A DNA stretch of 64,000 nt from an uncultured Pseudomonadota bacterium (GCA_902784345.1 CACZUD010000002.1:158183-222182); one strand, 5' to 3'; numbered from the stretch's first letter, positions 8,319 through 41,159 are shown. Made by a program: numbers and translations. Notes: generated by a model from the sequence alone, not told the origin.

Positions 8319-8340
8319 ACGGCGCAGATGCGCCGTTTTT
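8319..8340 (+). terminator. bidirectional intrinsic terminator (acggcgcagatgcgccgt + T5) between convergent genes
   Basis: 8-bp GC stem, T-run. Confidence 0.6.
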
Positions 8341-9409
8341 ACATAAAGACCGAAGTTATTTGTTCTTGCATCTGGAACGTTCCCAAAACAACCCACCCAA
8401 TGATAATAGAAACAAGAATAATTCCGACACTGTTAAGAACACTTGAAATGCTTTCCATTTTACGAACAGATTCTTCCATATAATCATTTGCAATCTGATT
8501 AAGGTTTTTATCAAAATCGTTCATATCTGAGTAAATCATTAAATCGCCAATAATTTCTTCGTTTGGAAAATCTTTACCTGTCATCGCCAACGCGCTTCCC
8601 AGATTTTCACCATTAGCAATATAATGCAGTGTTTCTTCCAAAGTATCTGATAAATATCTGTTTCCTGAATCTGCCAATAAACGCATCGCATCTGGCACAG
8701 AAACACCCGCCGACACCATCGCAGCCAAAGACATCAACCAACTGACCGAAACTTGCAATTTATATGTGTTATACGGTGGAAATCTGTCAAAAAAGGTTCT
8801 GATTCTGCCCGTCCATATTGGTAATGACACCCAAATAAACGCAAACAAACCAACAAAAGTAATTGCTATACCATACCAATATTTGTTTGCAAAATCAGAC
8901 ACCCAAACCAGTGACGCTGCTGTTCCGCGCCAAACAACATCACTGCCTGCGGCTTCTGCCAATGGTGGCACAAGATAAATTCCAACCATAACAATTATTG
9001 CAACTGTTAAAGCGAACAAAAACAACGGGTACGCAACCGCAGACCACATTGCACGCTTTATACGATTTATTCCATTAACAACGCGACCAATATTTTCCAG
9101 TGATATTAACAAACTGCTTACATTACCAGAAGTCAACAAAAGTGTTTCTTCACTTGGTACCCAACCAGATGTCGCCTGGGCAAATGTCATACCACGTTCA
9201 AGATTCTTTTGAATTTCACGCATGGCAATCGCAAATGGTTCATTTGGTTTACGTCCATTATGCGATTCTATCATTTCAATACGATGCAACGCATCCATCA
9301 AAGTAAAATTATTACGCAAAAGCGATGCGATTTTACGCGAAACCGCCATACGTTTTTCAGTATCGGTTTTAAAAACTATTTTTGCATAAAGTAATTCCAG
9401 TTTATTCAT
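8339..9409 (-). CDS. GspF/PilC-family inner-membrane platform protein (TcpE/BfpE/R64-PilR-like size)
   Basis: 356 aa; cytoplasmic N-domain, three hydrophobic TM segments, duplicated T2SSF-like halves; follows the ATPase. Confidence 0.75.
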   Translation of the reverse strand: MNKLELLYAKIVFKTDTEKRMAVSRKIASLLRNNFTLMDALHRIEMIESHNGRKPNEPFAIAMREIQKNLERGMTFAQATSGWVPSEETLLLTSGNVSSLLISLENIGRVVNGINRIKRAMWSAVAYPLFLFALTVAIIVMVGIYLVPPLAEAAGSDVVWRGTAASLVWVSDFANKYWYGIAITFVGLFAFIWVSLPIWTGRIRTFFDRFPPYNTYKLQVSVSWLMSLAAMVSAGVSVPDAMRLLADSGNRYLSDTLEETLHYIANGENLGSALAMTGKDFPNEEIIGDLMIYSDMNDFDKNLNQIANDYMEESVRKMESISSVLNSVGIILVSIIIGWVVLGTFQMQEQITSVFM

Positions 9410-9413
9410 TATC

Positions 9414-11033
9414 TTAATACACCCATGGTCTGTCTAATAAACCAACCCAGCGTTCCAATTCATCAACACCGATTATTCCGCGCAACATTAATTCCGTAGC
9501 CGCTTCTTTCAATGTGCGCCCGTTCATTTTTTCCAACCAATACTTTGTTGCGCCTTCGGTATCGCCAGAAAGAGCCAAACTTAAAAATTCACTGTTCGTC
9601 ATTATAATTTCGCCCGCCTTGATACGACCAATAGTTCCAGAACCTTTACAATGTTCACACCCTGGTCCACGAACAAAAACCTGATTCAACCCCAAATCAC
9701 CAAATGCATCTTTGACACGATTATACGCACCATGATCATGATGATTAATTAATGGTTCACGACAATATGGACAAAGCTTTTTAAACAAACGCATAGACAC
9801 AAGACCGCGCATCATTGTTTCGTCTTTTAATTTGAAAGATTCGACACCCATATCCAATAAACGCGTCAGTGCACCCATTGCAGAATTCGCATGCAGTGTT
9901 GTCCAAACATTATGACCAGACAATGCGCCCTTTACAGTTAATTGCGCCGCAGACAGCGTTCTTATTTCGCCAACCATCAATGTATCAGGGTCGCTTCGCA
10001 ACGCAGCTGCCAATGCTTCTGTAAACTTTTCTTCTCTTTGTTCTTCATTAACCGCATTAACCACCGGCATTTGATGCGCACCAAAAATCTTTTGTTCCGC
10101 AGGATCTTCCACAGTAATAAGATTTATTTCATATCTTCTTTCTTTTAACATCAACGCCATATTACGAACTAATGTGGTTGATTTACCAGATGACGTAGGC
10201 CCCGCAACAATAACCAATCCTGTTGGCGCGGAACGCAATCTTAACAATAATTTTTGTTCGTATTCATTAAATTCTTGTTCTGTTTTGATACCTTCGCTTG
10301 GGTTATCGTAAAGCAGACGCATAACAACATATTGCGAACCGAACGCAATCGGATTGAATTGCATTCTAATGCCCAAAACACCAGCCGGCAAATAAAGATC
10401 TTTTGTCCCACGTAATGGTGTCCGACCATCTTTTTGTGCAGTTTGATATTCGTTTTGTGCATAACTGGAATTTGAAATATCAGCCGATGCAAATGCGGCC
10501 CTTACAAAAGATTCCCCCCACTGTGAATTATATTCCAGAACAGGTTGCATACTGCCATCAATACGGAAATAAATTGTTGTTTGATCTGCAACTTCAATAT
10601 GAACATCTGAAACTTTCTGCGCCGCGGCACGTGCGATTATATCGACAAAATCTTTTTGCATCTGATTATCATAATCGGCACGTGAATGAACTGTTCCGCC
10701 CAATCTTTCATCATTTGTTTTATAGATATTCGATATCAAGCCCAAATCTGAATAAAAAGGTTCTTTGATTGGGCGTTTTTTTTGATGTAACAAATCAAGG
10801 AAAGCCAGCACGCGTCCATCATAACGATGTGTTCGCGATATTATAATCTCGCCACCAGAAAAATACGCAATCAAACTCTGCGTATCTTTAGGCAAAGCCA
10901 ATTCTGATGTATACGCAGTTAACAAACGATTATTATTTGCAAACAAGTAATCGATAATATCTTTACTGTTCGCGTTTTCCAAACCGCTTGGTATAGATTG
11001 TTGATTTGAAAAAATATTTTCAGTGTTTGACAT
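9414..11033 (-). CDS. GspE/PilB-family secretion/pilus assembly ATPase
   Basis: 539 aa; Walker A GPTSSGKST, Asp box ITVEDPAE, Walker B DTLMVGEIR, His box VWTTLHANSA, tetracysteine CPYC...CEHC. Confidence 0.9.
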   Translation of the reverse strand: MSNTENIFSNQQSIPSGLENANSKDIIDYLFANNNRLLTAYTSELALPKDTQSLIAYFSGGEIIISRTHRYDGRVLAFLDLLHQKKRPIKEPFYSDLGLISNIYKTNDERLGGTVHSRADYDNQMQKDFVDIIARAAAQKVSDVHIEVADQTTIYFRIDGSMQPVLEYNSQWGESFVRAAFASADISNSSYAQNEYQTAQKDGRTPLRGTKDLYLPAGVLGIRMQFNPIAFGSQYVVMRLLYDNPSEGIKTEQEFNEYEQKLLLRLRSAPTGLVIVAGPTSSGKSTTLVRNMALMLKERRYEINLITVEDPAEQKIFGAHQMPVVNAVNEEQREEKFTEALAAALRSDPDTLMVGEIRTLSAAQLTVKGALSGHNVWTTLHANSAMGALTRLLDMGVESFKLKDETMMRGLVSMRLFKKLCPYCREPLINHHDHGAYNRVKDAFGDLGLNQVFVRGPGCEHCKGSGTIGRIKAGEIIMTNSEFLSLALSGDTEGATKYWLEKMNGRTLKEAATELMLRGIIGVDELERWVGLLDRPWVY

Positions 11034-11036
11034 TAT

Positions 11037-11705
11037 TTATTTTCCAATACTTAAACTTTCTATTTCACCATCTTTTTCAAAAATAATACCATCATTCAAA
11101 GAAATTGATTTAACAATATAACCATCTAATTCTTTACCAACAGCAATACGTCTGTTTTGACCAGTTGCAACATCTTCGATAGTCGCTTGTAATTGATTAC
11201 CCATACCAATAACATTTATCAATTTATATTTTTTATTAACATCTGTTTCAACTTTCTTTTCTGGTGCTTTTGCAACAGGTGCAGGTTCTTCATCCAGCGC
11301 AGCCATTTGACGTTTTAAATTTTCTGTTTGGATATCCAACTGGGTTTTTGCGGCTTCTAATTCGTGTTGTTGTTGTTCTGCGCGTCCCGAAAGAGTATCT
11401 AATTCCATTTGCAATTTAATTTTTTCTGCATTTAATCTTTCCAAATCTAAATCTAGTTGCGCACGTTCTTTTTCTAATTGTACAACAACCTTTTCCTGTT
11501 CCAGCATTGTTATTTTTTCAAACAACGAACCATTTTCATTATAATTAAGCAGCGCGTCTGCAGACATTTTGTCCGCAGAATCAAAATCAGATACACTTTC
11601 TTCAACAATTTCTTCTTCGACATAATCATCATACGCAAAAACCGACTGGTTTACACCAATCACAAACAAAGAAACTATCATTATCAAATTCAATTTTTTC
11701 AACAT
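11037..11705 (-). CDS. secreted coiled-coil protein (position of BfpU/TcpS/PilP in type IVb pilus operons)
   Basis: Signal peptide MLKKLNLIMIVSLFVIGVNQSVFA; ~80-aa heptad-rich segment LEKERAQLDLDLERLNAEKIKLQMELD; C-terminal beta-rich domain. Confidence 0.5.
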   Translation of the reverse strand: MLKKLNLIMIVSLFVIGVNQSVFAYDDYVEEEIVEESVSDFDSADKMSADALLNYNENGSLFEKITMLEQEKVVVQLEKERAQLDLDLERLNAEKIKLQMELDTLSGRAEQQQHELEAAKTQLDIQTENLKRQMAALDEEPAPVAKAPEKKVETDVNKKYKLINVIGMGNQLQATIEDVATGQNRRIAVGKELDGYIVKSISLNDGIIFEKDGEIESLSIGK

Positions 11706-11716
11706 TTTTTGCCCTT

Positions 11717-12991
11717 TTATTTTGTATAAATAATTACTTCATAATTCCAAGTCCTTGTATTAGCACGCCAAGAAACAGATGTCATGTAAACACCCTGAAA
11801 ATCTTTAAAAGCATACATAAATTCAGATGGTATTAATTTTGAAGAAACCGCAACTTCTGTTACATGAACAGTTTCGCTTATGCCGTTATTCAAAATTGTA
11901 TCCGAAACATTGTTTATTTCTGCACGCGCCCCTATTTGTTGAAAAACACTGGCAATATCACGCGCAGCACTTATTGGATCGCGTTCATCTAACGAAGAAT
12001 ATGTCTTTAATGTTGGTAATTTAACACGAACGATAACTTCATCTTCTGATGTTTGTTGAACAACAGCCCCCGGCATTAATTCGCCACCAATTTCATAAAA
12101 ATCGTTCAGTGTTCCAAAATCCCGCATAAACGTCGCAGACACATATTCCCCATCACACTTTGCAAAAGTCTGATTCCAACCTGCGATTGGCTGCATAACA
12201 AAAGCGATTGCTTTATAGCATAAATTTGCACGTTCCATTACATTTGGCAAATTATCATATGGATATTGGAAAGACTGTACTGCTGCTTCTTGAGCTAATT
12301 TTTTATCTAAAATTTCTTGTTTTTTTAATTCTATTTGTTTTCTGTATTCGTTTGCCAACTCTGTATTTAAATTTACACCTTTATCAGATGGTGTTTTTAT
12401 TGGATTGCTTAAAATATAAAAACCGAACAAAACAAACAAAACGGCCATCAACAACGACGGCAACACCGCTTTCAAGAAACAAAATGGACGCAAACGCGCG
12501 ATATTACTATTTTTACCAATCAAATCAGATATATCTTTTTCTTGCGATTTGGGCATACCCCAACTTGCCGGCGCAATTAAAAGCCCCCAATCTGGCAAAG
12601 CAGAAAGTTCTGTATACGCTTTGCGTGCATCTTCTTGTTTTTCAAACAAAATATCACGAATAATAATTCCGTTTCTTACTGCGACAAGATAAAAACGATT
12701 ATTGACATTGAATACCGCCAAAAAAGAAATAAATTCTGATAAAGACTCTGCAATTTGTGCTGCCGCACTTTCGATACCTGTCTTTGCACCATCATAAGAA
12801 GATCCTACCCCAACCATAGATCGATATTCTGTAAAATAGCATCTTCTTTTACTTCCTGATTTAGCCAATTCTTTTGCGGCACTGCGTGCTGTATTACCAA
12901 CCCGCAGGGGCTGCCAAAAAAGCCCTGTTGCAAATTTTTTATGACGAACAGTTATGATTTGTTTTATCAATCTCTCTCTCTTTATGTGCAT
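11717..12991 (-). CDS. bitopic inner-membrane protein (BfpC/TcpD/PilO/GspL-like topology); start uncertain
   Basis: ~200-aa cytoplasmic domain, single TM FLKAVLPSLLMAVLFVLFGFYIL, ~220-aa periplasmic domain. The ORF track N-terminus (to 13075) runs through the upstream gene's terminator, so the start is placed at ATG 12989-12991. Confidence 0.5.
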   Translation of the reverse strand: MHIKRERLIKQIITVRHKKFATGLFWQPLRVGNTARSAAKELAKSGSKRRCYFTEYRSMVGVGSSYDGAKTGIESAAAQIAESLSEFISFLAVFNVNNRFYLVAVRNGIIIRDILFEKQEDARKAYTELSALPDWGLLIAPASWGMPKSQEKDISDLIGKNSNIARLRPFCFLKAVLPSLLMAVLFVLFGFYILSNPIKTPSDKGVNLNTELANEYRKQIELKKQEILDKKLAQEAAVQSFQYPYDNLPNVMERANLCYKAIAFVMQPIAGWNQTFAKCDGEYVSATFMRDFGTLNDFYEIGGELMPGAVVQQTSEDEVIVRVKLPTLKTYSSLDERDPISAARDIASVFQQIGARAEINNVSDTILNNGISETVHVTEVAVSSKLIPSEFMYAFKDFQGVYMTSVSWRANTRTWNYEVIIYTK

Positions 12992-13034
12992 TATAGCACA
13001 AATAGATAAAAAAAATAAAGACGAAATTTGTACT

Positions 13035-13060
13035 AAAAAAGTCGTATTTCTACGACTTTT
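13035..13060 (-). terminator. intrinsic terminator after lipoprotein gene (gtcgtatttctacgac + T-run on minus strand)
   Basis: Hairpin 7 nt downstream of the stop at 13063. Confidence 0.55.
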
Positions 13061-13062
13061 CA

Positions 13063-13377
13063 TTATTTTTGACAATTATATACCTTTACTTTGAATTTAA
13101 AGGTTTTATCTGGGCCAAAAAACGTATCTGGAATTTCTGTAATATCCTGTTTTACAATGTAATAAGAATCACCTATTTTTTCTTGTTCCAATATGCTTTT
13201 TTCCAGATATTCATATGCATCTGATAATTTATAATTTTTAACATTGGAATCCAGAGTATATAAAAATTCACAATTTTTTGGTTCATTATCTAATCTAACC
13301 AAACCAGAACCAGCATCTGTGGATGTTGCACACCCTGCCAATACAATCAAAGACGATAAAGTTAAAATTTTTTTCAT
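13063..13377 (-). CDS. small lipoprotein (104 aa)
   Basis: Lipobox LAGC at the signal peptide end; two further Cys. Confidence 0.5.
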   Translation of the reverse strand: MKKILTLSSLIVLAGCATSTDAGSGLVRLDNEPKNCEFLYTLDSNVKNYKLSDAYEYLEKSILEQEKIGDSYYIVKQDITEIPDTFFGPDKTFKFKVKVYNCQK

Positions 13378-13386
13378 TTTTTTCTC

Positions 13387-14322
13387 CTATTCTTCAACAA
13401 TTTCATAATTAGATTTATCACTAAATAATTTTCGCAAAACCAGATTATTCAACGCATGTGAACCTTTGTATGATTCCAGATGACCGTATATAAAACCACC
13501 ACTTGTGAACATATCACCAACTGCATCTATGATTTTATGACGAACAAATTCGTCTTTATAATATAACTTGTTAAGAACACCATCACCTGCATCATTTAAC
13601 GCAATAACATTGTTTTCATTTGCGCCACGACCCATACCGTGTGCTTTCAGATATTCCCATTCAGAATATTTCCCAAAAGTACGTGATTTTGAAATATCTT
13701 TGATAAATTTATCTTTTGATTTTTTAGTTTCGTCTAACAAACAAGAATAAGATTGTGTTCCGATAATTTTATCTTTGTAAACCAAAGTTGCATCTATTAA
13801 CAAGCCATTATCGTTTGGGGACAATTTAACATAACCATTACCATTGCGCCAAATTGTGTGATTTAAAATTATCATTTTTATCTTTTTCCAGAAAGGCATT
13901 GTTTTTACTAATTCATTACGATATGCAATTATTGGCTTTTTAACAATTATTTTTTTGATATTTGATTTTGAATCTGTTGCGTCTTTGAAAAGATTTATAA
14001 ATTCGTAAGCACTGCCATCTAAAATTGGTGTCTCTGGTCCATCTATTTCAATAATCGCAGAATCTATCCCGGTTATAAAAAGCGCGGCCATCAAGTGTTC
14101 TATGGTTTGAACATGTGCGCCGTTTTTATCGCCAATTGTAGTATTACGCATTAATGTTTCGCCTACATTATCATATTTTGCAGGAATTAAATCAGATTCT
14201 GGCAAATCGGTTCTTTTGAAAAATATTCCGGACTTCTTAGACGGTTTTATAACCATATTTACTGGTAATCCAGAATGAATTCCAACACCTGATATTTTAA
14301 TTTTTTTGTTCAACTGTTTCAT
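13387..14322 (-). CDS. lpxC: UDP-3-O-acyl-N-acetylglucosamine deacetylase
   Basis: TIEHLMAAL, HKIIDAVGDMF (HKxxDxxGD) motifs; 311 aa. Confidence 0.9.
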   Translation of the reverse strand: MKQLNKKIKISGVGIHSGLPVNMVIKPSKKSGIFFKRTDLPESDLIPAKYDNVGETLMRNTTIGDKNGAHVQTIEHLMAALFITGIDSAIIEIDGPETPILDGSAYEFINLFKDATDSKSNIKKIIVKKPIIAYRNELVKTMPFWKKIKMIILNHTIWRNGNGYVKLSPNDNGLLIDATLVYKDKIIGTQSYSCLLDETKKSKDKFIKDISKSRTFGKYSEWEYLKAHGMGRGANENNVIALNDAGDGVLNKLYYKDEFVRHKIIDAVGDMFTSGGFIYGHLESYKGSHALNNLVLRKLFSDKSNYEIVEE

Positions 14323-15229
14323 TAACCTTTCCTTTTAACCAATCATAAAATTTAGAATCTATATCTGTTTGCAATGCAGAAAACTTTATTTGTTCCTTTG
14401 CCCATTGTGGCAAGCGTACCCAATCTTTTTCCGTAGTCAACAATTTGGCATTTTTTTCTTTTGCCAAACTCGTCAACTTTTTTATATCTTCATCTGTATA
14501 TTGATAATGGTCAGGAAAAGAGATTTTTTCAATTATCTTGCAAGGAATATTATCAAAGAATTTCTCAGGGTACCCAATCCCAGCAAACGCAACCACATTT
14601 GTATTTTTATCATACGGACAAATTTCACTGTTTTTTGCTTGAAACACTGGAATATTTGTTGGTAAAGCAAAATCTGGACGCACATCTTTTCTTTTTATAA
14701 GAATTATCGCATCTGCACGTTTTATAGCAGATTTAGTTTCACGCAACGGACCCGCAGGCAATAAAAATCCATTTCCAAAACCAATAGATTCATCAAATAC
14801 CAACACAGAAATATCTTTTTTTATCGAAGAATTTTGAAAACCATCGTCCATTACTATTGGGGTATCTGATTTTTGCTTGTTTAACAAAATCAAATTACTT
14901 TTACGATTACCAACATGCACCAAAATATTATCAGAAGATAACATTTTTGCTTCGTCCCCAATACCCCCTGTTTGTTTAGATTTTTTATATCCGCGCATCA
15001 CAACAGGTGCATCAAAGAACTTTGCAACATTACGAACTATCGGTGTTTTACCGACACCACCAGATAAAATATTACCAAAACAAATAATCGGACGACGCGA
15101 TACATATTCGCGTTTTTTACGCATATTGAAAACAGTCTTGCTGCCCAATAAATAAAACAAAGAAAGCGGCAACAACATGACCGATGAAAAACTTCTTTTC
15201 AAAAACCACTTTGGTGTTTTCATGAGCAA
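14297..15229 (-). CDS. lpxK: tetraacyldisaccharide 4'-kinase
   Basis: P-loop GNILSGGVGKTP; 310 aa; 26-nt overlap with lpxC. Confidence 0.85.
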   Translation of the reverse strand: MLMKTPKWFLKRSFSSVMLLPLSLFYLLGSKTVFNMRKKREYVSRRPIICFGNILSGGVGKTPIVRNVAKFFDAPVVMRGYKKSKQTGGIGDEAKMLSSDNILVHVGNRKSNLILLNKQKSDTPIVMDDGFQNSSIKKDISVLVFDESIGFGNGFLLPAGPLRETKSAIKRADAIILIKRKDVRPDFALPTNIPVFQAKNSEICPYDKNTNVVAFAGIGYPEKFFDNIPCKIIEKISFPDHYQYTDEDIKKLTSLAKEKNAKLLTTEKDWVRLPQWAKEQIKFSALQTDIDSKFYDWLKGKVNETVEQKN

Positions 15230-15232: not shown

Positions 15233-15976
15233 TTAGTGTTTAAAATTTTCAGGTGTTAAATCTTGTTCGACACGAAAATCGGTAAATCTTTTATCCAAAT
15301 CATAAGCCTGTTTAACCATAATATCTTCCAGATTCTTACGAATTTTTTCAAAATCTTCTGTCTTTGTTTTTCTGTCAATAAACACAGGTTTTCCAACACT
15401 GCCCGCCATTATAGAAAAAGGTTTCATTAATAAATATCTGTCCCAACGATTTAAAAACCAAGGACGCGAACAAGAATAACAGACTGGAATAATTGGTGCC
15501 CCAGTCATTTTGGCGAAATAAAGCGCCCCATCGTGAAAACGCATAGACGGACCACGCGGACCATCAGGCGACAAAGCCAAACAAAAACGCCCCTTGTTCA
15601 GCGCACTGATACCGCGTTTCAAAACATTAACGCCACCACCAGCAGAAGAACCATAAATAGTACGCAAACCGAACAATTTTTCCATTTTAGCAATCGCGCG
15701 ACCATCTTTCTTGCTGTCTGCAATGGCATAGCCACGAACGCGATTAAGCGCAATAACCGGTGATAACATCATTGTTCGCCCATGCCAAAACACAAAAATC
15801 GCAGGTTTTCTGGCATATTGACGCAGAATTTCTAAGCCTTTGATGTCTTTTTTTGCGGTAAAATATACAAACCAAATCAAGACATAATAAACAAGGGCCA
15901 AAATCCACTGAATTACGCCCCAACCATACAGAAATCTAAAAAAATGCTTTAAGTTCTTTTTAAGCACTTTTGTCAT
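15233..15976 (-). CDS. DUF374-type lysophospholipid acyltransferase family protein (commonly adjacent to lpxK/waaA)
   Basis: 247 aa, N-terminal TM; synteny with lpxK. Confidence 0.55.
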   Translation of the reverse strand: MTKVLKKNLKHFFRFLYGWGVIQWILALVYYVLIWFVYFTAKKDIKGLEILRQYARKPAIFVFWHGRTMMLSPVIALNRVRGYAIADSKKDGRAIAKMEKLFGLRTIYGSSAGGGVNVLKRGISALNKGRFCLALSPDGPRGPSMRFHDGALYFAKMTGAPIIPVCYSCSRPWFLNRWDRYLLMKPFSIMAGSVGKPVFIDRKTKTEDFEKIRKNLEDIMVKQAYDLDKRFTDFRVEQDLTPENFKH

Positions 15977-16069: not shown

Positions 16070-16146
<77 letters not shown>

Positions 16147-16198: not shown

Positions 16199-16813
16199 CT
16201 AATCAAAACATTTTTTCAGTGTTTCGCCACTGTCATTCAAATCAACATGTTTGTTGCGGATTTCTTCATCTGCCCGTATTTGTTGTTTAAGTAAAACAAT
16301 ATCAGGATGATTTTGTAATTCATTATTTAATTTATCAATAGCAAATTCTATATCTTTTTCATTTTTTACGAATATCGGAACGATTGAATTTGCGGCATTT
16401 TGTACAGATTTTTTAAATAAATCTTTGTTGTCTTCTATAACAGATAAATAGGCCCTTATATGTTCGTCTTCATGTTGCAGTATCGCATTATAAGAACAAG
16501 AATTTGGTCTGTGAGATATATCTATTTGAACCAGAAAATCCGAATACCCTATCGTCGTATCTATATTTTTCAAAGACACACAAAAACCGTCTTCTATGGA
16601 AGTTATATCTGCTGTTATTTCAAATTCATCGACCAGTGTTGCTACTACATTTCCATGTAAAACATCCATTTTTTGTAATGGTTGAACAACACTTTTCGTC
16701 CAAACAGGCACATTTATTGTAACTTCAGGGTTTAATTTATAATTTAAACAATCGTCCCCCGCAAATGCATCTGAAATAAAAAACGATAAAAATATATAAA
16801 TAAATTTTTTCAT
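16199..16813 (-). CDS. secreted HExxH protein (DUF922-like putative Zn-dependent peptidase), paralog B
   Basis: Signal peptide; HEDEH motif; ~30% identical to the upstream paralog (shared C..YK.NP, G.C.SL..ID, SC.Y, PIF.K.EK, KLN blocks). Confidence 0.55.
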   Translation of the reverse strand: MKKFIYIFLSFFISDAFAGDDCLNYKLNPEVTINVPVWTKSVVQPLQKMDVLHGNVVATLVDEFEITADITSIEDGFCVSLKNIDTTIGYSDFLVQIDISHRPNSCSYNAILQHEDEHIRAYLSVIEDNKDLFKKSVQNAANSIVPIFVKNEKDIEFAIDKLNNELQNHPDIVLLKQQIRADEEIRNKHVDLNDSGETLKKCFD

Positions 16814-16815: not shown

Positions 16816-17454
16816 CTAATCTATAACTATATCAGAATTTTTCATTTTTTTATAAAAATCATCACATTTCCAAATATGATAGCTGTCGCCACGTTCATCT
16901 ATTTTTTTATTTTCCAATGTTAATTCTTCTACTATATCTGATTTAATTTTTTCAACAAAATCACTTTTATTTAATTTTTCAGAAAAATCAGGCACTTCTT
17001 TTTCAGATTTTATGAATATTGGTTTAAAATCTTTTGCGCCATCTTTCACAGATTTTTTTATCTTATCAAGATTAGATTTTATCACATTTTTATAAACATT
17101 TACATGATCTTGTTCATGTCTATAAACTATATCATACGCACAAGATTTTTCTTTTAATCTTTTATCTATTATAACATCAAAATCTTCAATAATTTCAATA
17201 TCAATACCACGCAAAGATGCACAATATCCGCCGTGTACAGGAATTATTACCGTATGCGCCATGGCACTGTACGACATCTTTGGTTCTGTATAACCCAACT
17301 TTCCAACCATTTCTTTATCTGATTTTTGAGTTTTAACATCTTTAATGTTTAATTTTATATCAACATCTGGATTATATTTATACTTTGAACAATCATATGC
17401 AAAAGACATATATGGTGAAAACACAAATAACAAAAAGATTATTTTCTTAAACAT
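16816..17454 (-). CDS. secreted HExxH protein (DUF922-like), paralog A
   Basis: Signal peptide MFKKIIFLLFVFSPYMSFA; HEQDH motif. Confidence 0.55.
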   Translation of the reverse strand: MFKKIIFLLFVFSPYMSFAYDCSKYKYNPDVDIKLNIKDVKTQKSDKEMVGKLGYTEPKMSYSAMAHTVIIPVHGGYCASLRGIDIEIIEDFDVIIDKRLKEKSCAYDIVYRHEQDHVNVYKNVIKSNLDKIKKSVKDGAKDFKPIFIKSEKEVPDFSEKLNKSDFVEKIKSDIVEELTLENKKIDERGDSYHIWKCDDFYKKMKNSDIVID

Positions 17455-17494: not shown

Positions 17495-18532
17495 TTATTT
17501 TTTATCTATTTCAGATAAATATTCTTCATACATAAAATCCCAAATGTTCACATATTTTTTACAAACCCGTTCATAATTATCCAAAACAGCCGGTAATCTG
17601 CGTTTATATTCTTCTGGGGTGCACATCTTTAAAACTTGTTCTATATCTGATTCTGTTGTTATTTTTATTATGCCATCTGGGTTAAAGAATTGATCTATTT
17701 CTGTCGCACCAAGATATATTGGAATACATTGGTTTGCCAGTGCTGTTGTAAATCTTTCTGAAAAATAGTATTTATTCACGTCATTTTCTAAACAAATACA
17801 AAACATATAATCGCGGTAAGTATCTGATAATTTTTCTACACGTGGACCACCATCAAAATTACCAAAAGTATCGCATAAATGTTCTTTTTTACACTTTATT
17901 GCTAAATTGTACCTGAATTCGTGCAGTGAACACATACGTTTATCAGAAGAAATAAAAGAACAAATTTTACTTTTGTGTTTATACATTTCTGGTTCACATG
18001 GTTCGTCCCAAATACCAGCAGCAAAAGGAACAAATCTTGCATTCGGGATTGTGTCTAAAATCTTTGAAGAATATGTAAAAATATAATCAAACTGTTTATA
18101 TAAATCGGGATATTTTTCAAATATTTTATAATCTTCTGGGACAATAGATTCAGATTCTACAAACATACCAAATTTATGTTTTGGTTTTCCCATTGTTTCC
18201 AACATGGCATCATTAGTGTAAAAATGCATATCTAACCCAATATTAAATTTATCCCATATAAAATATTTTGATGCTTCGGCAGAACAATAATCAAAATGTC
18301 TATCGCGCAGGAAAAAAGTCCGCATTTTTTTTCCATCTTTATTATAAATATCTGGTTCTTTATTACTTGGTAAAATCGCAAAATTATAGTAAGGAAAAAA
18401 TAACTTGCCATACAACGTTTTAACATAACGATGTTTTTCACTGGTGTTATTTTTATAGCTCGCGATTTTTATACCACATAAATATACGTGTACACGACCA
18501 TTTGTGCCTATTTCTTTTTTTAAAAATTTCAT
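17495..18532 (-). CDS. GT10-family alpha-1,3-fucosyltransferase-like glycosyltransferase
   Basis: DYMFCICLENDVNKYYFSERFTTALANQCIPIYLGATEIDQFFNPDGIIKI matches the alpha1,3-FucT motif of H. pylori FutA (KFNLCFENTQGYGYVTEKIIDAYFSHTIPIYWGSPSVAKDFNPKSFVNV). Confidence 0.65.
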   Translation of the reverse strand: MKFLKKEIGTNGRVHVYLCGIKIASYKNNTSEKHRYVKTLYGKLFFPYYNFAILPSNKEPDIYNKDGKKMRTFFLRDRHFDYCSAEASKYFIWDKFNIGLDMHFYTNDAMLETMGKPKHKFGMFVESESIVPEDYKIFEKYPDLYKQFDYIFTYSSKILDTIPNARFVPFAAGIWDEPCEPEMYKHKSKICSFISSDKRMCSLHEFRYNLAIKCKKEHLCDTFGNFDGGPRVEKLSDTYRDYMFCICLENDVNKYYFSERFTTALANQCIPIYLGATEIDQFFNPDGIIKITTESDIEQVLKMCTPEEYKRRLPAVLDNYERVCKKYVNIWDFMYEEYLSEIDKK

Positions 18533-18641
18533 TAAAAAACTCTTTTATTATTCCAACATAATTTAAGTATGGGAATAATTTTCTATAATATCAAGCAGAA
18601 AACCGCCAGTATAAAAAATTCACAGATGTCGGTAAGTTCTA

Positions 18642-21056
18642 TTACATTGTTTGCTTTTTTAAATATTCTGCAACAAAGTTATTTCCATATGTTTTATAAA
18701 GTTCTTCGGCCAATAATACAGATGAACGTCCGGATTCAAATAACTTTAACATATTTCCCAAACCACCCAATTCAGTATTTAAAATCACAGATTCCCCGTT
18801 AACAGGACGTGATAATAATACCGCACGTTTAAGATTTGGATATGCCTGACCTTTGATAAATGCCATTTCCAGTGGATTTAAATTCCATTTTTCATAATCA
18901 CTGGTATCTGCCGCAGGATTACGGAAGAATAATACAGTCTGTGCCTGACCACGAACAACATCACCTATCCCAAGTTTATCAAGAACATTTGCACGTTGGA
19001 AAGCAACCATATATGCCTGACGATTTTTACGACCTTCTTGAAGTCCGGCTATGAAATTATCGCGAAACATTTTATTTTCCAACATTGGTGCTGTTTCATC
19101 AATCATAATAAGTGAAGGATTTCCGCCGGATACAGTTACATTATTTATTCTGTGTAATATATAAGATATAACAGCCGGCGCCAATACTTCATCTTGCAAA
19201 ATTTCTGTAAAATCAAAAGTTGTTAAACGCGCACCTAAATCAAGAGTATCTGCTTCTTCATTAAATATGTCGCCATATTGTAATGGATCAACCCATTTCT
19301 TTAATTCGGCGCGCATCGGGCCACTGGATGAAAAACAGCTTTCATAAAGATTCTTTAATAACCTGTCTTTATCCTGCAGATAATCAAAGTTAACAGATAC
19401 AGCACGTGCAATTTCATCCATTGATTCTGCATCATTAATATTGGTTATCATTGAAAACCATCTGCGTAAAAATGCACGATTACTGCTACTATCTGGCATT
19501 TTCAGAGGATTCAAATGTGTTAAAAATGCGTCACTACTTGCATCTTTTTCTTTGCCATTCATTGTTATATATTTACCACCAACAGCCAGAGTAAATATTT
19601 CAGCCCCCTTGTTTCTGTCAAAGAAAAACGCTTTTAACTTTTGATAACGTAAAGATTGTGCAATAAGGAACGAGAACAAAGTCGTTTTACCACCACCAGT
19701 TGGACCTATGGTCAGGGTATGACCAACGGCTGCCGGTTTATCAGAAACATGAAATTGAAATTGATATGGTGTTCCTTGGGCTGTTGGGAAAACAACAATT
19801 GGACCCTGACCCCAATCACTGTCCTTAACACCAGTTGGCATAGATGACAACGGTATACTTGTTGCAGCCGTCTTTGATAACATTTTAAATATTCTTGGAA
19901 ATACATCAAATCCAGGTAATTGAGCAAAAAAGGACACTTTTGATGCAAAAGTTTCAACAACTGGTGATATACCAAATGAAGCAGATATTTTCTTAAATTC
20001 ATCAACATATTCATTTAATTCTTCTATACTTTTACCAAACAACATAAACAAAGGATAATAATCAACCAATGTTTGATTACCAGTTTGATTTTCATCCATT
20101 TGATTTTGTGCTTCACTTATTTGTTCAAGTGTAGATTCTTCTGTTTCATCGGTAATAGTTGAACGATGTTGACGCATCAGTGTTTCAATATCACTTGATT
20201 GTAAAATATGAAAAGCATTCATACATATCATTTCACATTGAATAGTTGAAACAGTATCAAAAAATTCTTCATCCATATAATCAGGCGATATTTTAAAAGA
20301 AAGTGCAGCAGCATAATATTTTTTATCACCACTGGTATATTCAATTACACCGTTTTTCATAAATTCAACATTATCAACACATACTAAATTTGATATATTT
20401 TCGTCACATTTTTTTATTATCGGCTTTGATACAGGTGACAAAATTCTACCAAAGAAAGTTGCCATATTATCGATATTATTATTTCTTAACAATATTGGTT
20501 TATATGCAGATAATATAGATTCAACATAATTACAACACTGATTTAATTTTTCACGATTATTTTGACCATGAACAGAAACAACAACATAATAATTATTAGA
20601 ATAAATCTTTAAACCTTGATTATTCCATTTATCATATATTTTCTGCAAAGTTGGCTGATCAAATTCATAATCTGTTTTTTGGTCTATGAAATCACGAATT
20701 GTAAAAAATCGCAGACAAACATCAGGATCTTGAATTTGATTAAATAATTGGGCACGCAAATCCAGCATTTTTTCACGATTTTTATCACTCATCATACTGG
20801 TTTGTACACCTTTTATTTTATAAACACGAACCAAAGATCCATCATCAATCGATAAACTGTCATCACTGTAAACGGCATTGAAAGGTAAATAATCGGAATA
20901 TTTTGTATAACCAAATTTTGGAAAAACTTTCTTTACAATTGTTGGTATATAAGCCAACAAAACCAAAAATACCAGAACAACAGACATTGCTATTATAACC
21001 AAAGTCAATGTCATAGAATCTGTATTTCCTGCAAAATAATTAAATAATCTTTCCAT
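18642..21056 (-). CDS. virB4: type IV secretion system ATPase VirB4/TrbE family
   Basis: 804 aa; N-terminal TM; Walker A TIGPTGGGKTT; CagE_TrbE_VirB-type C-terminal domain. Confidence 0.9.
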   Translation of the reverse strand: MERLFNYFAGNTDSMTLTLVIIAMSVVLVFLVLLAYIPTIVKKVFPKFGYTKYSDYLPFNAVYSDDSLSIDDGSLVRVYKIKGVQTSMMSDKNREKMLDLRAQLFNQIQDPDVCLRFFTIRDFIDQKTDYEFDQPTLQKIYDKWNNQGLKIYSNNYYVVVSVHGQNNREKLNQCCNYVESILSAYKPILLRNNNIDNMATFFGRILSPVSKPIIKKCDENISNLVCVDNVEFMKNGVIEYTSGDKKYYAAALSFKISPDYMDEEFFDTVSTIQCEMICMNAFHILQSSDIETLMRQHRSTITDETEESTLEQISEAQNQMDENQTGNQTLVDYYPLFMLFGKSIEELNEYVDEFKKISASFGISPVVETFASKVSFFAQLPGFDVFPRIFKMLSKTAATSIPLSSMPTGVKDSDWGQGPIVVFPTAQGTPYQFQFHVSDKPAAVGHTLTIGPTGGGKTTLFSFLIAQSLRYQKLKAFFFDRNKGAEIFTLAVGGKYITMNGKEKDASSDAFLTHLNPLKMPDSSSNRAFLRRWFSMITNINDAESMDEIARAVSVNFDYLQDKDRLLKNLYESCFSSSGPMRAELKKWVDPLQYGDIFNEEADTLDLGARLTTFDFTEILQDEVLAPAVISYILHRINNVTVSGGNPSLIMIDETAPMLENKMFRDNFIAGLQEGRKNRQAYMVAFQRANVLDKLGIGDVVRGQAQTVLFFRNPAADTSDYEKWNLNPLEMAFIKGQAYPNLKRAVLLSRPVNGESVILNTELGGLGNMLKLFESGRSSVLLAEELYKTYGNNFVAEYLKKQTM

Positions 21057-21059: not shown

Positions 21060-21359
21060 TTACACTACTAATTTTCTTGGCACCCTATTTTTTATTATTC
21101 TTATACTTGAAAATATAGTTTGAGCGATTTGCGGATCTTGTTTTGAATAAAAAGCCAATATTGCATGACAAAGCGATAAAATACCCAAAAAAAACAAAGG
21201 TAACCACATCGGTATATTACGTGGCGGGATTATCAAAAAAAAGATTATTCCCGCTACAAAAACCAAGAACCAAATCAGGAAATTTAATATTGCAAGATTA
21301 TAAGGCACATAAAATATGCGCGGTGGGTTTGCCAAAGCTTTCAGAACTTTTTGCCTCAA
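21060..21359 (-). CDS. virB3: type IV secretion system protein VirB3
   Basis: 99 aa; LANPPRIFYVPYNLAILNF (VirB3 L..P....GVP......N motif) followed by two TM helices; 3 nt upstream of virB4. Confidence 0.75.
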   Translation of the reverse strand: MRQKVLKALANPPRIFYVPYNLAILNFLIWFLVFVAGIIFFLIIPPRNIPMWLPLFFLGILSLCHAILAFYSKQDPQIAQTIFSSIRIIKNRVPRKLVV

Positions 21360-28798: not shown

Positions 28799-30564
28799 TA
28801 TTTTAATAATTCCTTCATAATTTTTGCCGTTGCGCGTGCCGCAGGTCCAGAACCACCCGCGTGTTCCATAATCACGCATACGGCGTATTTTGGGTTGTCT
28901 GTTGGTGCATACCCAACAAAAAGACCATGGTTACGCAAATTCCATTTTAATTGTTCATTTGTTAAAACCCCGCTTTGTCTTTCTGCTTTTGATATATTTC
29001 TGACCTGGGAAGTACCTGTTTTTCCACCCATTTTTTTACCGTTTACATTGATAGCACTGCCCGATGCGGTTCCGCCTGTCTTTGTTACTTCTTCAAGACC
29101 AGTTAAAACATGTTTTATATTCTTTTCTTGTAAACCAAGGTTTTTGAATACTGGTGTTTCATCAGAATATATAAGACGTGGTTTTACTTCTTTGTTAGAA
29201 ACAACGCGTGCCATCATAACCGCTAATTGCAGGCAGTTTGTTAAAATAAAACCTTGCCCAATCCCAGAAATAATAGTGTCCCCGTGAACCCATGACGCAC
29301 CAACATTTTTTTCTTTCCAGCGTCTATCTGGTATAATTCCAGGCATTTCATGTGATAATACATCATCCATATATTTTTGGTTTAATCCCAACTTCAAAGC
29401 CATATGTTTTATCGCATCAATCCCGATTTTTAATGCCAGTTGATAAAAATAAATATCACAAGAATGTTTTAATGCACCATACAAATCAACGTATCCATGT
29501 CCGTGTTTTTCCCAACAATGATATTTATGGTCGCCGTATTCCCAAAAACCTGGACAAAATACTTTTTCGTGTGGTGATATTGCGCCACTTTCAAGTGCCG
29601 CCAATGCCACTACTATTTTGAAAGTTGAACCAGGCGGATACAAACCTTCAATAGTTTTATTCATAAATGGTTTTGCTGTATCACTTAAAAGAGATGATAT
29701 GTATTCTTCGCCATCATCTGTTTTAAAATTGTTTGGATCAAAACTGGGTGTAGAGGCCATCGCCAGAATATTACCGTTTTCAATATCCAAAACAACACCG
29801 CAACCTGCCCTGTTCATAGCAAGTGCATCATAAAGAACCTTTTGAACATTGTCACGCACTGTTGTTTTTATATCTTTACCAGGAATTGGCGCAACAAACT
29901 GCGTTTTATCTTCGCCTGTTATACGACCAACGGCATTTGATATTAATACTGTTTGACCGGGTATGCCAGCCATGTCGTCATTGAATCTTTTTTCAAGTCC
30001 ATTGATTCCATATGTAAAAAATGGGTTGTTTGGCACAGATTTTTTTGGTGCGCCAACATAACCGAAAACTTGCGCCCCCGCAGGTCCCATTTCATACACG
30101 CGCGAAAAACCATTTCCAATATGAATTCCTGGAATATTTTTAGCAGATAATCCAGCCAGAACATTCCAATTAGTATTTTCTGTTATCAAAACAGGCTGAA
30201 ATTTTTGTTGTTTTTTTATGTTTCGCCAAATTCTGTCTACGGTTTTTTTACGTAAATTTAATTCTTTGGTAACAGTTTCAACAACAGAGTTTATATCATC
30301 TGTTTCTTCTGGTATAAGATATATACGATATATTGGTGTGTCCCTTGAAATCACAGTACCAGATTCTGATAAAATATTGCCACGTTTTGGCATGTTGACT
30401 TGAATACGAAAAGAATTATTTTCACTTTTACGTGAATATTCTTTGTATTCAAAAATCTGCATTTGAAGCATACGCATAACTAATACAGAAGTCAAAATAG
30501 CCCCGCCCGTTAAAAACAGTGCGCTGCGTCTGTCAAAAGTGCGTGACACTTCGGTATCTATCAT
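28798..30564 (-). CDS. mrdA: penicillin-binding protein 2 (elongasome transpeptidase)
   Basis: SxxK STFKIVVALAALESG, SxN, KTGT (GGKTGTSQV). Confidence 0.9.
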   Translation of the reverse strand: MIDTEVSRTFDRRSALFLTGGAILTSVLVMRMLQMQIFEYKEYSRKSENNSFRIQVNMPKRGNILSESGTVISRDTPIYRIYLIPEETDDINSVVETVTKELNLRKKTVDRIWRNIKKQQKFQPVLITENTNWNVLAGLSAKNIPGIHIGNGFSRVYEMGPAGAQVFGYVGAPKKSVPNNPFFTYGINGLEKRFNDDMAGIPGQTVLISNAVGRITGEDKTQFVAPIPGKDIKTTVRDNVQKVLYDALAMNRAGCGVVLDIENGNILAMASTPSFDPNNFKTDDGEEYISSLLSDTAKPFMNKTIEGLYPPGSTFKIVVALAALESGAISPHEKVFCPGFWEYGDHKYHCWEKHGHGYVDLYGALKHSCDIYFYQLALKIGIDAIKHMALKLGLNQKYMDDVLSHEMPGIIPDRRWKEKNVGASWVHGDTIISGIGQGFILTNCLQLAVMMARVVSNKEVKPRLIYSDETPVFKNLGLQEKNIKHVLTGLEEVTKTGGTASGSAINVNGKKMGGKTGTSQVRNISKAERQSGVLTNEQLKWNLRNHGLFVGYAPTDNPKYAVCVIMEHAGGSGPAARATAKIMKELLK

Positions 30565-31010
30565 GATTTAACCCAATTATCTAATACAGTTACAGGTGTG
30601 TATAAAACGCTTAACCACAGAAATAACCATAAATTATTAACAAGATTTGTCCACGAAAAACCGTAAATTGTTAAAAGAAAAAAACCTGTACCTATGAAAG
30701 TCATAAATATAAATATTGCATTGTTATTCGTGTGTTGAAAATCAATATGATTTTGAAATCCGTTTATTGCATAACATAAACAGTATAAACATGTCCAAAA
30801 AAGTGCCAAATCACTACGATAATCGATTAAAAAACAAAAAAACAAGCCAAAAATAGCAAAATTTTTTATAGGACGCACAAAAGTATAATAAAATACAGGT
30901 ATTAAACACAATATGCCAGCAGGGTTCCAAAAATATATTGCCAAACGCCACAAAAACAACGTTATTAAAAACGGCATAATTTGTTTCAAAATCGATACAA
31001 TTTTGTACAT
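30561..31010 (-). CDS. mreD: rod shape-determining protein MreD
   Basis: 149-aa polytopic protein between mreC and mrdA. Confidence 0.6.
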   Translation of the reverse strand: MYKIVSILKQIMPFLITLFLWRLAIYFWNPAGILCLIPVFYYTFVRPIKNFAIFGLFFCFLIDYRSDLALFWTCLYCLCYAINGFQNHIDFQHTNNNAIFIFMTFIGTGFFLLTIYGFSWTNLVNNLWLFLWLSVLYTPVTVLDNWVKS

Positions 31011-39559: not shown

Positions 39560-40237
39560 ATGGCAAAGTCGAAAATAACTCTTACACCGGATATTTATTT
39601 TGCAAATGTGTGTCCCACATTAAATATGAATATCCGGTCTGAATTGTATTCGACTAATGAATTTACTTTTGCAGTGGCGGTGATTTTATCGGCGCAGGCC
39701 ACTGATAAAAAAGTTAACGAAGTAACCCCAGAACTTTTCAAGATTGCCCCAACACCAGATAAAATGTTGAAACTGGGCTTGGACGGATTAAAAAAACATA
39801 TACGTGTTATATCTTTCTTTAATAACAAAGCAGATAACATAATAAAATTATCAACACAATTAAAAGATAAAAACAGTGACGATATAAATTATAAATTTCC
39901 AAAGAAATACCATAATCGCGTTGAGTTAATGAAACTGGCAGGTGTCGGTCAAAAAACAGCGAACGTGATAATGAATGTACTTTGGAACGCCCCAAATATC
40001 GGGGTTGATACACATGTTTTTCGTAATGCACATCGGTATGGTTGGGTTGGCATGGCAGAAAACACACCTGAAAAAGTCGAAGAAAAACTGTTAAAAATAA
40101 TCCCACAAAAATATCATGCGATTGTAAATCATGTAATGGTTTTGCATGGACGATATACTTGCAAGGCGCTTCGTCCAGACTGTGAACATTGTCCGGTCGC
40201 AAAATGGTGTAATGCATCAGAGAAAAACATACTATAA
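39560..40237 (+). CDS. nth: endonuclease III
   Basis: LSAQATDKKVNEVTPELF, HhH LAGVGQKTANVIM, VDTHVFRNAHRYG, 4Fe-4S C-x6-C-x2-C-x5-C. Confidence 0.9.
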   Translation: MAKSKITLTPDIYFANVCPTLNMNIRSELYSTNEFTFAVAVILSAQATDKKVNEVTPELFKIAPTPDKMLKLGLDGLKKHIRVISFFNNKADNIIKLSTQLKDKNSDDINYKFPKKYHNRVELMKLAGVGQKTANVIMNVLWNAPNIGVDTHVFRNAHRYGWVGMAENTPEKVEEKLLKIIPQKYHAIVNHVMVLHGRYTCKALRPDCEHCPVAKWCNASEKNIL

Positions 40238-40268
40238 ATTATCGGCTTTTTATGATAAAATATATGGC

Positions 40269-41159
40269 ATGAAAATGATAAAAATATTATTTTTTTTGCC
40301 GTTATTTTTTACATCAATATCGTACGCTGCTGACACGTGTGAGTATGAATATGTTGTTAGTGATTTACGACAAAATTGCACAGGGATAAATGCAGAATTA
40401 CAGGAAATAAAAACTTACGGGACAGTTAACACAATTGTAACAGGCGCTGGTACTGTTGCGGCGGGTGGTGCGTTATACGCCGGTATAAAAAAGAAAGATT
40501 TGGATAAAAAAGCCGAAGAATTGGCTAAAAAAATGGAAGACATAGAAAATATGTCTGATTCTGAATTTGTATCTTTCCTTAAAGAAATGGCGCAGTATCA
40601 AGAATTAAAAGAACAATATGACGATTATGAAGCGCAATCAAAAAAACTAGGAAATGTTCGCACTGGTTTAATGGTTGGAAACACTGCAACTGCGGTTGCC
40701 GGAACGATAATTTCTGCCAAAAACAAAAAAGATTCAGATTCAATTAAAGATATGATACAAAAATGTTTGAACACAATAAAAAACAACGAACAAAAAATTG
40801 GTCAATCAATGATTGATTGCAGTCGTGAAAAATATGAAAAATTAAAAAAAGCGGCATCAGAATGTAGAAGCCTTAGCACAGAAAATATGGAAAAAGTATC
40901 AAAACACAATAAAGTATCTACAATAGTTTCTGGGGTTAATATCGGAACGGGGACCGCAGGGGTGATAACATCTGCACTTGCAAACAAAAATCAATATGAT
41001 CAAAAAACAAAAAATCTGAATACTGCGGCAAATGTGTTATCTGGTACATCTATGGTTGCTTCTGGTGTTTCGACAGTATTTAATGCAACGACATTAAAAT
41101 CTATTAACAATAATTTACGCGCATCAGAGGCATGCGAAAAGGCATTAAGTGAATTATGA
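40269..41159 (+). CDS. secreted Cys-containing protein with four Gly/Ala/Thr-rich glycine-zipper-like segments
   Basis: Signal peptide MKMIKILFFLPLFFTSISYA; segments TGAGTVAAGGALYAGI, GLMVGNTATAVAGTII, VSGVNIGTGTAGVITSALA, SGTSMVASGVSTVF separated by K/E-rich helices; 6 Cys. Start moved to the internal ATG; the ORF track start overlaps nth. Confidence 0.55.
   Translation: MKMIKILFFLPLFFTSISYAADTCEYEYVVSDLRQNCTGINAELQEIKTYGTVNTIVTGAGTVAAGGALYAGIKKKDLDKKAEELAKKMEDIENMSDSEFVSFLKEMAQYQELKEQYDDYEAQSKKLGNVRTGLMVGNTATAVAGTIISAKNKKDSDSIKDMIQKCLNTIKNNEQKIGQSMIDCSREKYEKLKKAASECRSLSTENMEKVSKHNKVSTIVSGVNIGTGTAGVITSALANKNQYDQKTKNLNTAANVLSGTSMVASGVSTVFNATTLKSINNNLRASEACEKALSEL

Follow-up and report, generated by a model that had tools for sequence, protein, structure and literature searches.

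Separated by 109 bp from virB4 upstream and by 40 bp from sp212 downstream, with all three in the same orientation, a glycosyltransferase gene raises the question whether it is a servant of the T4SS, a tool of host mimicry or a gene for decorating the cell surface. We addressed this question in the window, by which we mean the whole 64 kb stretch of DNA analysed, and in related loci from other genomes, to which L numbers refer below.

The window and its GT10-family protein

The genes TopA, DnaG, YchF and VirB4 of the window are 85, 88, 94 and 92% identical, respectively, to those of a Candidatus Enterousia MAG. Considering these identities of the flanking housekeeping genes (85–94%), the window comes from that genus of rumen and gut alphaproteobacteria (order Rs-D84). 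A 100% identical protein (P0001) occurs in public MAGs, and 92% identical orthologues were retrieved from three GTDB genomes: Candidatus Enterousia sp. ruminal_MAG_27, Alphaproteobacteria bacterium UBA2947 and RUG14344. Enterousia genomes from farm-animal guts are mostly smaller than 1 Mb (about 0.9 Mb for the genus), Enterousia/Rs-D84 lack the TCA cycle, respiration, glucokinase, PGI and FBP aldolase, and the cells are rods with peptidoglycan (PMC12306168). The first-pass annotation spoke of a putative intracellular lineage, which goes further than the published account of Enterousia, where a partner-dependent lifestyle is proposed and intracellularity is not demonstrated (PMC12306168). The window contains compact housekeeping genes, mreBC/rodA/PBP2, lpxC/lpxK, pilus genes and virB3/virB4, a content that agrees with the published picture of the genus.

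Table 1. Features of the GT10 locus, with positions counted from the first nucleotide of the window
Feature	Position	Strand	Basis or remark
GT10-family, GT-B-fold glycosyltransferase CDS, 345 aa, predicted soluble/peripheral	17495..18532	minus	ATG-to-stop ORF
C-terminal nucleotide-sugar-binding domain, residues 186-297	17642..17977	minus	Pfam GT10 match region
alpha1,3-FucT motif YMFCICLENDVNKYYFSER, residues 242-260	17753..17809	minus	ungapped alignment to 2nzw
N-terminal (acceptor) Rossmann-like domain, residues ~36-180	17993..18427	minus	contains invariant E126
E126, candidate catalytic base	18155-18157	minus	invariant in 33 sequences
N-terminal beta-meander module, residues 1-28, MKFLKKEIGTNGRVHVYLCGIKIASYKN	18449..18532	minus	3 predicted strands, pLDDT ~74-85
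Promoter-like site TTGATA-17 nt-CATACT	18566..18594	minus	consensus scan; inside ~60-bp upstream segment
virB3	21060-21359	minus	Pfam PF03135 and PF05101 for the virB4-virB3 pair
virB4	18642-21056	minus	Pfam PF03135 and PF05101 for the virB4-virB3 pair
sp212, secreted HExxH/4-Cys protein	16816-17454	minus	sp204 paralogue
sp204, secreted HExxH/4-Cys protein	16199-16813	minus	core gene, normally directly after virB4
tRNA-Met	16070-16146	minus	lone occupant of sp204-DUF374 slot here
DUF374	15233-15976	minus	conserved backbone, far side
lpxK	14297-15229	minus	conserved backbone, far side
lpxC	13387-14322	minus	conserved backbone, far side

The protein belongs to family GT10. It was retrieved with the Pfam profile Glyco_transf_10 (PF00852) at 34.8 bits, above the gathering cutoff of 23.9 bits (E 1.7e-8), and the match covers about 110 residues (186–297), corresponding to positions 3–115 of the 182 in the profile. 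Most homologues among the matches listed carry a precomputed PF00852 hit. The N-terminal half gave no family match in a Pfam scan at E ≤ 1, and NCBIfam and PHROGs returned zero matches for the whole protein. GT47 (Exostosin), the only other hit of the Pfam scan, was considered as a family and rejected, the match being weak (E 0.038) and falling short of the cutoff. A phmmer search of all PDB sequences retrieved GT10 fucosyltransferases exclusively (9s6a, 1.1e-5; 7yro, 1.1e-3; 2nzw, 1.3e-3); with a profile built from 33 family sequences, the E-values improved to 1.8e-11 (9S6A) and 2.7e-10 and human FUT9 was added. The GT10-type C-terminal domain with an alpha1,3-FucT motif, as first annotated, is thus borne out by the Pfam score and by PDB matches that are all GT10.

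An AlphaFold2 model computed on the family alignment (pLDDT 90.5, pTM 0.82) has the two-domain GT-B fold. The nearest solved structures are GT10 enzymes: the best Foldseek matches in the PDB were H. pylori FucT (2nzx/2nzw/2nzy; E 2e-8, about 350 aligned columns, TM-score about 0.48), mango FT13, Arabidopsis FUT11 and human FUT9, followed by GT-B enzymes from other families. Sequence identity to solved GT10 enzymes is 14–19%. With such identities, a Pfam match of some 110 residues and a bacterial subfamily of its own, the protein cannot be said to match 'closely' or to be of 'Eukaryote/Helicobacter-type', as had been proposed.

The alpha1,3-FucT consensus Y-x-F-x-[LV]-x-F-E-N-x(5)-Y-x-[TS]-E-K is matched by YMFCICLENDVNKYYFSER, with R in place of the final K. 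Both strings quoted in the first-pass annotation occur in the protein: residues 247–261 read CLENDVNKYYFSERF and residues 270–288 read IPIYLGATEIDQFFNPDGI, a IPIPYLGATEIDQFFNPDGI-type sequence. H. pylori FucT (2nzw) aligns here without gaps at an offset of 10, so that N240, Y246, E249 and K250 of that enzyme correspond to N250, Y256, E259 and R260. In the 33-sequence alignment, the invariant residues of the C-terminal domain are K187, S192, S196, K198, R207, E249, N250, P271, Y273 and G275; E259 is almost always kept, and either R or K stands at position 260. The column of R195, the phosphate-binding arginine of H. pylori FucT, was located through the Arabidopsis FUT11 alignment and is occupied by a near-invariant histidine, His204; the invariant Arg207 lies three residues further on, one helical turn away. 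In the N-terminal domain, E126 follows a beta-strand (residues 119–123) in the AlphaFold2 model and, judging from this placement and its invariance, is a plausible equivalent of E95, the catalytic glutamate of H. pylori FucT.

No signal peptide and no hydrophobic or transmembrane segment were found in the protein (maximum 19-residue Kyte-Doolittle mean, 0.84). Repeats are absent from the C-terminus of the protein, and the gene is free of poly-C and poly-G tracts, with no C or G run reaching four nucleotides. The N-terminal beta-meander, as a 27-residue module, also heads the acetyltransferase adjoining the GT10 gene in L010 and L011, and similar N-termini are found on acetyltransferases in L025, L027, L030 and L037.

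A bacterial subfamily and a variable glycan island

GT10 had been described as rare in bacteria, a view that the number of relatives contradicts. Homologues of the window protein form at least 630 clusters at 90% identity (E ≤ 1e-3), and the best 120 of these at least 630, as listed, are 45–81% identical over nearly their full length. Few are named, being annotated as 'hypothetical' or 'glycosyltransferase family 10 domain-containing protein'. An exhaustive HMMER search of 1.84 billion cluster representatives (50% identity) retrieved 93 clusters at E ≤ 1e-30, 1122 at ≤ 1e-10 and 3137 at ≤ 1e-3. A GTDB scan with one genome per species detected a relative in at least 135 species genomes, mostly from rumen or gut.

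These relatives are spread over Gastranaerophilales/Melainabacteria, Lachnospiraceae, other Clostridia, Synergistaceae, Treponema, Lentisphaerae, Helicobacteraceae, Desulfovibrionaceae, Riflebacteria, Synechococcus/Cyanobium and several alphaproteobacterial MAGs. Close relatives are all bacterial, both among the matches listed and in the GTDB scan. A neighbour-joining tree, which has no support values and is used for patchy taxonomy only, places Alphaproteobacteria in at least four separate positions, and the Enterousia clade branches within a group of Helicobacteraceae, Desulfovibrionaceae, Gastranaerophilales and Lentisphaerae. Such patchiness agrees with horizontal exchange between gut bacteria. 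An origin from phages or plasmids was rejected; cyanophages and one uncultured 735-kb phage record supplied only distant homologues (30–33% identity), and the single plasmid match, to a 1.8-Mb Neorhizobium plasmid record, was weak.

The subfamily is embedded in polysaccharide genes. In a census of the 134 genes immediately beside the GT10 gene in 80 species genomes, the neighbours included GT2 (30), SDR sugar epimerases/dehydratases (10), formyltransferases (10), hexapeptide acyltransferases (8), GT8 (5), Wzx-type flippases (4), GT11 (3) and DegT aminotransferases (3). Relatives with 66–81% identity to the window protein lie in clusters rich in GT2 that also contain GT11, acetyltransferase and phosphonate genes; their loci share Mtd_N proteins with L014 and therefore probably belong to related lineages.

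In the Enterousia-lineage loci compared, a species-variable glycan island is found between virB3-virB4-sp204 and DUF374-lpxK-lpxC. The backbone comprises topA-dnaG-ychF-sufD-like-virB3-virB4-[sp212]-sp204 before the island and DUF374-lpxK-lpxC after it, and virB3-virB4 is also present in L013, L014, L093 and L095. What lies between differs from locus to locus: in L095, glf, two GT2 genes and GT4, followed by DUF374-lpxK-lpxC; in L093, GT2, RgpF, two further GT2 genes, a pyruvyltransferase, a radical-SAM gene and GT11; in L013, GT10, a GT32-like gene, DUF115, neuB and neuA; and in L014, GT10, a gene for an Mtd_N protein, CDP-ribitol/glycerophosphotransferase genes (teichoic-acid-like), an acetyltransferase, LmbE, GT8 and GT4. 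The GT10 gene of L012 differs again in its surroundings, with a GT8 gene and giant repeat proteins as neighbours and no virB genes nearby. The gene order is virB4-sp204-GT10 in L013 and L014. In the window, the GT10 gene stands between virB4 and sp212, and a tRNA-Met gene alone fills the slot between sp204 and DUF374. The island has shrunk to one transferase in this genome, and that transferase is placed on the other side of sp204.

The GT10 gene is preceded by a stretch of about 60 bp, containing TTGATA-17 nt-(C/T)ATACT, that is kept in all four Enterousia contexts (the window, L012, L013 and L014), and the upstream neighbour gene differs among them. Conserved despite its changing neighbours, this segment indicates that GT10 is an accessory cassette that brings its own promoter to each of the four settings. 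A coupling to sp212/sp204 was considered and rejected, each being found in the absence of the other: L093 has sp212 but no GT10 gene, and L013 and L014 have the GT10 gene but no sp212. Neither sp204 nor sp212 gave a match in NCBIfam or PHROGs; for sp204, Pfam gave no family either and Foldseek no match in the PDB. A conserved secreted HExxH protein following virB4, with no family or PDB fold match in the libraries searched, is a modestly useful finding in itself.

Function, donor sugar and competing explanations

The window gene is an ordinary cell-surface decoration gene and not a rare eukaryote-like import. We assign its product with high confidence to the GT10-family transferases acting on a surface glycan. 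Among the roles offered by the first-pass annotation, the one most in keeping with the gene context is decoration of an O-antigen or LOS-type glycan; host mimicry and modification of a T4SS substrate are poorly supported, as is the view of the gene as a pseudogene. The reading that we favour, and consider probable, is that the enzyme attaches fucose, in alpha linkage, to LOS/LPS or to a different surface glycan as the product of an accessory, self-promoted cassette of the variable island.

The enzyme would be a cytoplasmic or peripheral GT-B transferase, most likely inverting; the nucleotide-diphosphate sugar bound by its C-terminal domain would most probably be GDP-beta-L-fucose. A glutamate of the N-terminal domain (candidate E126) would act as the catalytic base and deprotonate the acceptor hydroxyl. 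The sugar would then be joined in alpha linkage to the growing surface glycan at the inner face of the inner membrane, and the acceptor may be the outer core of LOS/LPS, an O-unit or another lipid-linked polysaccharide. Donor and linkage are what we infer, given that identity to solved enzymes is 14–19%, that the donor domain alone is detectable from sequence, that a histidine occupies the Arg column and that E126 is a putative base. That the enzyme is specifically a fucosyltransferase is a conclusion we hold with moderate confidence. To our knowledge, the characterised GT10 enzymes of CAZy all use GDP-fucose.

Gene context provides mixed evidence on the donor. No gmd, fcl or man genes were found in the 64 kb window, where tblastn with E. 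coli K-12 Gmd, Fcl, ManB, ManC and RmlA-D also detected none, and neither the window nor the 16–21 kb around the three orthologues yielded genes for GDP-fucose supply, be it synthesis by gmd/fcl or salvage by fkp. Given that Rs-D84 genomes reportedly have no glucokinase, PGI or FBP aldolase (PMC12306168), de novo synthesis of GDP-fucose is not assured. Across the 80 species loci, gmd and fcl occur together within 10 kb of the GT10 gene in two (L043 and L061, one from Treponema and one from Riflebacteria). Pointing away from fucose, dTDP-rhamnose (rml) genes are near it in seven, and an SDR about 30% identical to RmlB is encoded directly upstream in around a dozen loci, mostly of Lachnospiraceae/Clostridia. 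In L058, this upstream SDR is TviC-like, a TviB-like gene precedes it and a formyltransferase gene follows; the TviC-like/TviB-like pair points to UDP-GalNAcA synthesis. In favour of fucose, the Helicobacter homologue P0023 has a GT11 gene, gmd and manC beside it, and GT11 genes are present in Enterousia-lineage islands.

The main live rival is a subfamily of the same fold and family that uses a donor other than GDP-fucose, either another GDP-6-deoxyhexose or a UDP-sugar such as UDP-GalNAcA. We consider it unlikely, yet deserving of serious attention. It would account for the rarity of gmd/fcl co-location, for the upstream SDR genes with the pair in L058, for the absence of GDP-fucose genes from the window and for the substitutions at two columns (His for Arg195; Arg, in most members, for Lys250), and we identified no characterised member of the subfamily. 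However, the GDP-fucose contacts of H. pylori FucT (N240, E249 and K250) are kept as N250, E259 and R/K260, several loci have GT11 neighbours, and gmd and manC accompany the Helicobacter homologue. Moreover, the genes of a polysaccharide cluster mirror the whole repeat unit and not the donor of one transferase, and GDP-fucose genes often lie at another place in a genome. A further proposal, which we regard as improbable, is that the gut clade is a distinct GT10 branch, with a non-fucose donor or an unusual acceptor, and that Enterousia, with less than 1 Mb of genome, no upper glycolysis and no GDP-fucose genes in the window, might retain its lone copy under strong selection in order to decorate its surface with a nucleotide sugar scavenged from a partner cell. 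If this were true, the GT10 gene would be a marker of a partner-dependent lifestyle.

Mimicry in the style of H. pylori, with fucosylation of O-antigen LacNAc producing Lewis x/y-like epitopes directed at the ruminant host, is very improbable. The protein is a GT10 member with H. pylori FucT as its top structural match, and the organism inhabits an animal gut. Nevertheless, identity to H. pylori FucT is only 14%, the window encodes no galactosyl-, GlcNAc- or other glycosyltransferase that could make LacNAc, and neither the C-terminal heptad repeats of H. pylori FucT nor the poly-C phase-variation tract of its gene is present. Sibling species pair GT10 with genes for nonulosonic acid or for ribitol/glycerol-phosphate polymers, and immune mimicry has no obvious place in the rumen lumen.

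It is barely credible that the glycosylation target is a component or effector of the T4SS, or the secreted neighbours sp212 and sp204, a proposal that draws on the close spacing of the genes and on the protein-modifying GT10 enzymes FUT10/FUT11 of animals (PMC11949838). Adjacency to virB4 is limited to Enterousia and variable there: it was found in the window (and in L001, of identical sequence), L013 and L014, and is absent at the other 78 GTDB loci and in L002–L011. Gene order varies, virB genes are missing from the surroundings of L012, sp212 stands without GT10 in L093, and the GT10 gene has its own promoter segment. The 25 most frequent flanking families (80 loci) include no T4SS family. 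In addition, sp204 and sp212 are exported with signal peptides, and the enzyme has neither a signal peptide nor a transmembrane segment. Considering how few loci show the adjacency and that no T4SS family is a frequent flank, the T4SS link is positional, a matter of local synteny, and not functional.

That the gene is a decaying, non-functional leftover of a lost glycan island is scarcely tenable, even though it is the sole glycosyltransferase left at the locus, in a strongly reduced genome (PMC12306168) whose sp204-DUF374 slot is empty of glycan genes, because dN/dS against the three orthologues, each 92% identical, is 0.05–0.07 at dS 0.6–0.8, a sign of strong purifying selection and hence of a functional gene, and because the ORF is full length, every invariant family residue is kept and the promoter segment is conserved.

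With surface-glycan decoration as the preferred role, a GT10 transferase in the surface-glycan locus of a gut bacterium is expected biology. The hypervariable island is kept even in Enterousia genomes below 1 Mb, which implies strong diversifying pressure on the surface from phages, partners or the host. As a large group with many members in rumen and gut bacteria, the subfamily could serve as a source of fucosyltransferases, for instance to synthesise fucosylated oligosaccharides.

Comparison with known systems

The H. pylori enzymes FutA/FutB (2NZW/2NZX/2NZY, 5ZOI; CAZy GT10) share the GT-B fold with the window protein and are its best Foldseek match. The C-terminal motif aligns gap-free, with N240, Y246 and E249 kept, and both enzymes are bacterial and expected to act on LPS or a surface glycan. 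They differ in sequence (14% identity, TM-score about 0.48), the window protein having R260 in place of K250 and His204 in the R195 column. H. pylori FucT possesses C-terminal heptad repeats and an amphipathic tail, and its gene a poly-C tract, all of which the window protein and gene lack; the window protein, in turn, has an additional N-terminal beta-meander module.

Among solved structures, the best sequence match is Arabidopsis FUT11/FucTA, the plant core alpha1,3-fucosyltransferase (9S6A), over residues 178–303. This enzyme, mango FT13 (7YRO) and human FUT9 (8D0O) share the fold of the window protein at 15–19% identity; unlike it, they are type II membrane proteins of the eukaryotic Golgi, and their substrates are N-glycans or LacNAc. 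The similarity to eukaryotic fucosyltransferases stems from a conserved donor-binding domain and does not speak for a eukaryotic origin.

The island itself also has counterparts. The LOS/CPS loci of Campylobacter and the LPS genes of Helicobacter are variable glycosyltransferase islands of host-associated Gram-negatives. Like them, the Enterousia islands have conserved flanks and species-specific content, and they adjoin lipid A genes. They mix GT2, GT4, GT8, GT10 and GT11 with acetyltransferases and nonulosonic-acid genes, as do known LOS and capsule islands. The Enterousia island differs in its position, between virB3-virB4-sp204 and DUF374-lpxK-lpxC, in its occurrence in genomes of less than 1 Mb and, in the window, in its reduction to a single glycosyltransferase.

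Secreted proteins beside virB4

In the Enterousia-lineage loci seen, virB4, a type IV secretion system (T4SS) gene, is normally followed directly by sp204; in the window, the GT10 (fucosyltransferase-like) gene and sp212 lie between them. sp204 and sp212 share about 30% identity; each has a signal peptide, and an HExxH motif and four cysteines are invariant in both. We retrieved 667 homologues of sp204 (E<=1e-3), the best 120 of which are 73-92% identical; no Pfam, NCBIfam or PHROG matches were found among these best 120. The AlphaFold2 model of sp204 is confident (pLDDT 87.6) and combines a long beta-hairpin sheet with a helical bundle, for which Foldseek detected no match in the PDB at E<=0.001. 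sp204 may be a lineage-specific metalloprotein tied to the T4SS.

Features of the window and of related loci from other genomes (L handles, own coordinates)
Feature	Locus	Positions	Strand	Remarks
sp204	window	16199-16813	-	secreted protein, paralogue of sp212
sp212	window	16816-17454	-	secreted protein, paralogue of sp204
N-terminal module of GT10 protein	window	18449-18532	-	first ~27 residues, MK..K....NG.R..Y..GIKI.SYK
Hexapeptide acetyltransferase	L010/L011	11059-11706		adjoins GT10 gene
DUF115 protein	L013	11883-12680
Mtd_N-domain protein	L002	20331-20828		glycan-island edge
Mtd_N-domain protein	L008	11073-11528		glycan-island edge
Mtd_N-domain protein	L010	13358-13813		glycan-island edge
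Mtd_N-domain protein	L014	11131-11598		glycan-island edge
Pilus/secretion set	window	8339-13075	-	T2SSF, T2SSE ATPase, 222-aa ORF, PilO-like accessory protein
222-aa ORF of this set	window	11037-11705	-	no Pfam match
ORF	window	30561-31010	-	no Pfam match
ORF	window	40146-41159	+	no Pfam match; just upstream of protease gene
Trypsin-like protease gene	window	41156-42088		just downstream of preceding ORF
ORF	window	52319-53020	-	no Pfam match

N-terminal modules and Mtd_N proteins of glycan islands

The start of the GT10 protein is predicted to fold as a three-strand beta-meander. Its sequence recurs nearly verbatim at the N-terminus of the acetyltransferase of L010/L011, and looser versions head acetyltransferases in L025, L027, L030 and L037. 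A looser module was also recognized by eye in the DUF115 protein, which the regex scan had missed. This looks like a common N-terminal module on unrelated glycan-island enzymes.

The Mtd_N domain forms the N-terminal part of the major tropism determinant of phages. Small proteins with this domain (151-165 aa) are encoded at the glycan-island edge in Rs-D84-like loci, and L013 holds a related protein of 307 aa; the window has no homologue.

Pilus or secretion genes and unmatched ORFs

A pilus or secretion gene set adjoins lpxC in the window. The only type IV pili mentioned in the published survey of Enterousia belong to another lineage (PMC12306168). Four sizeable window ORFs, one of them within this set, had no Pfam match at E<=0.001.

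GT10-like genes in Lachnospiraceae/Clostridia

In Lachnospiraceae/Clostridia loci (L035, L039, L049, L051, L055, L058, L067, L068, L071, L072 and L076), the gene immediately upstream of the GT10-like one encodes an SDR with about 30% identity to RmlB. Gene-by-gene examination covered one of these loci, L058, whose module comprises a TviB-like dehydrogenase, a membrane protein, a TviC-like epimerase, the GT10-like transferase, a formyltransferase and a deacetylase. This suggests that a pathway producing an N-acyl amino-uronic acid polymer is conserved and that its GT10-like enzyme may transfer something other than fucose.
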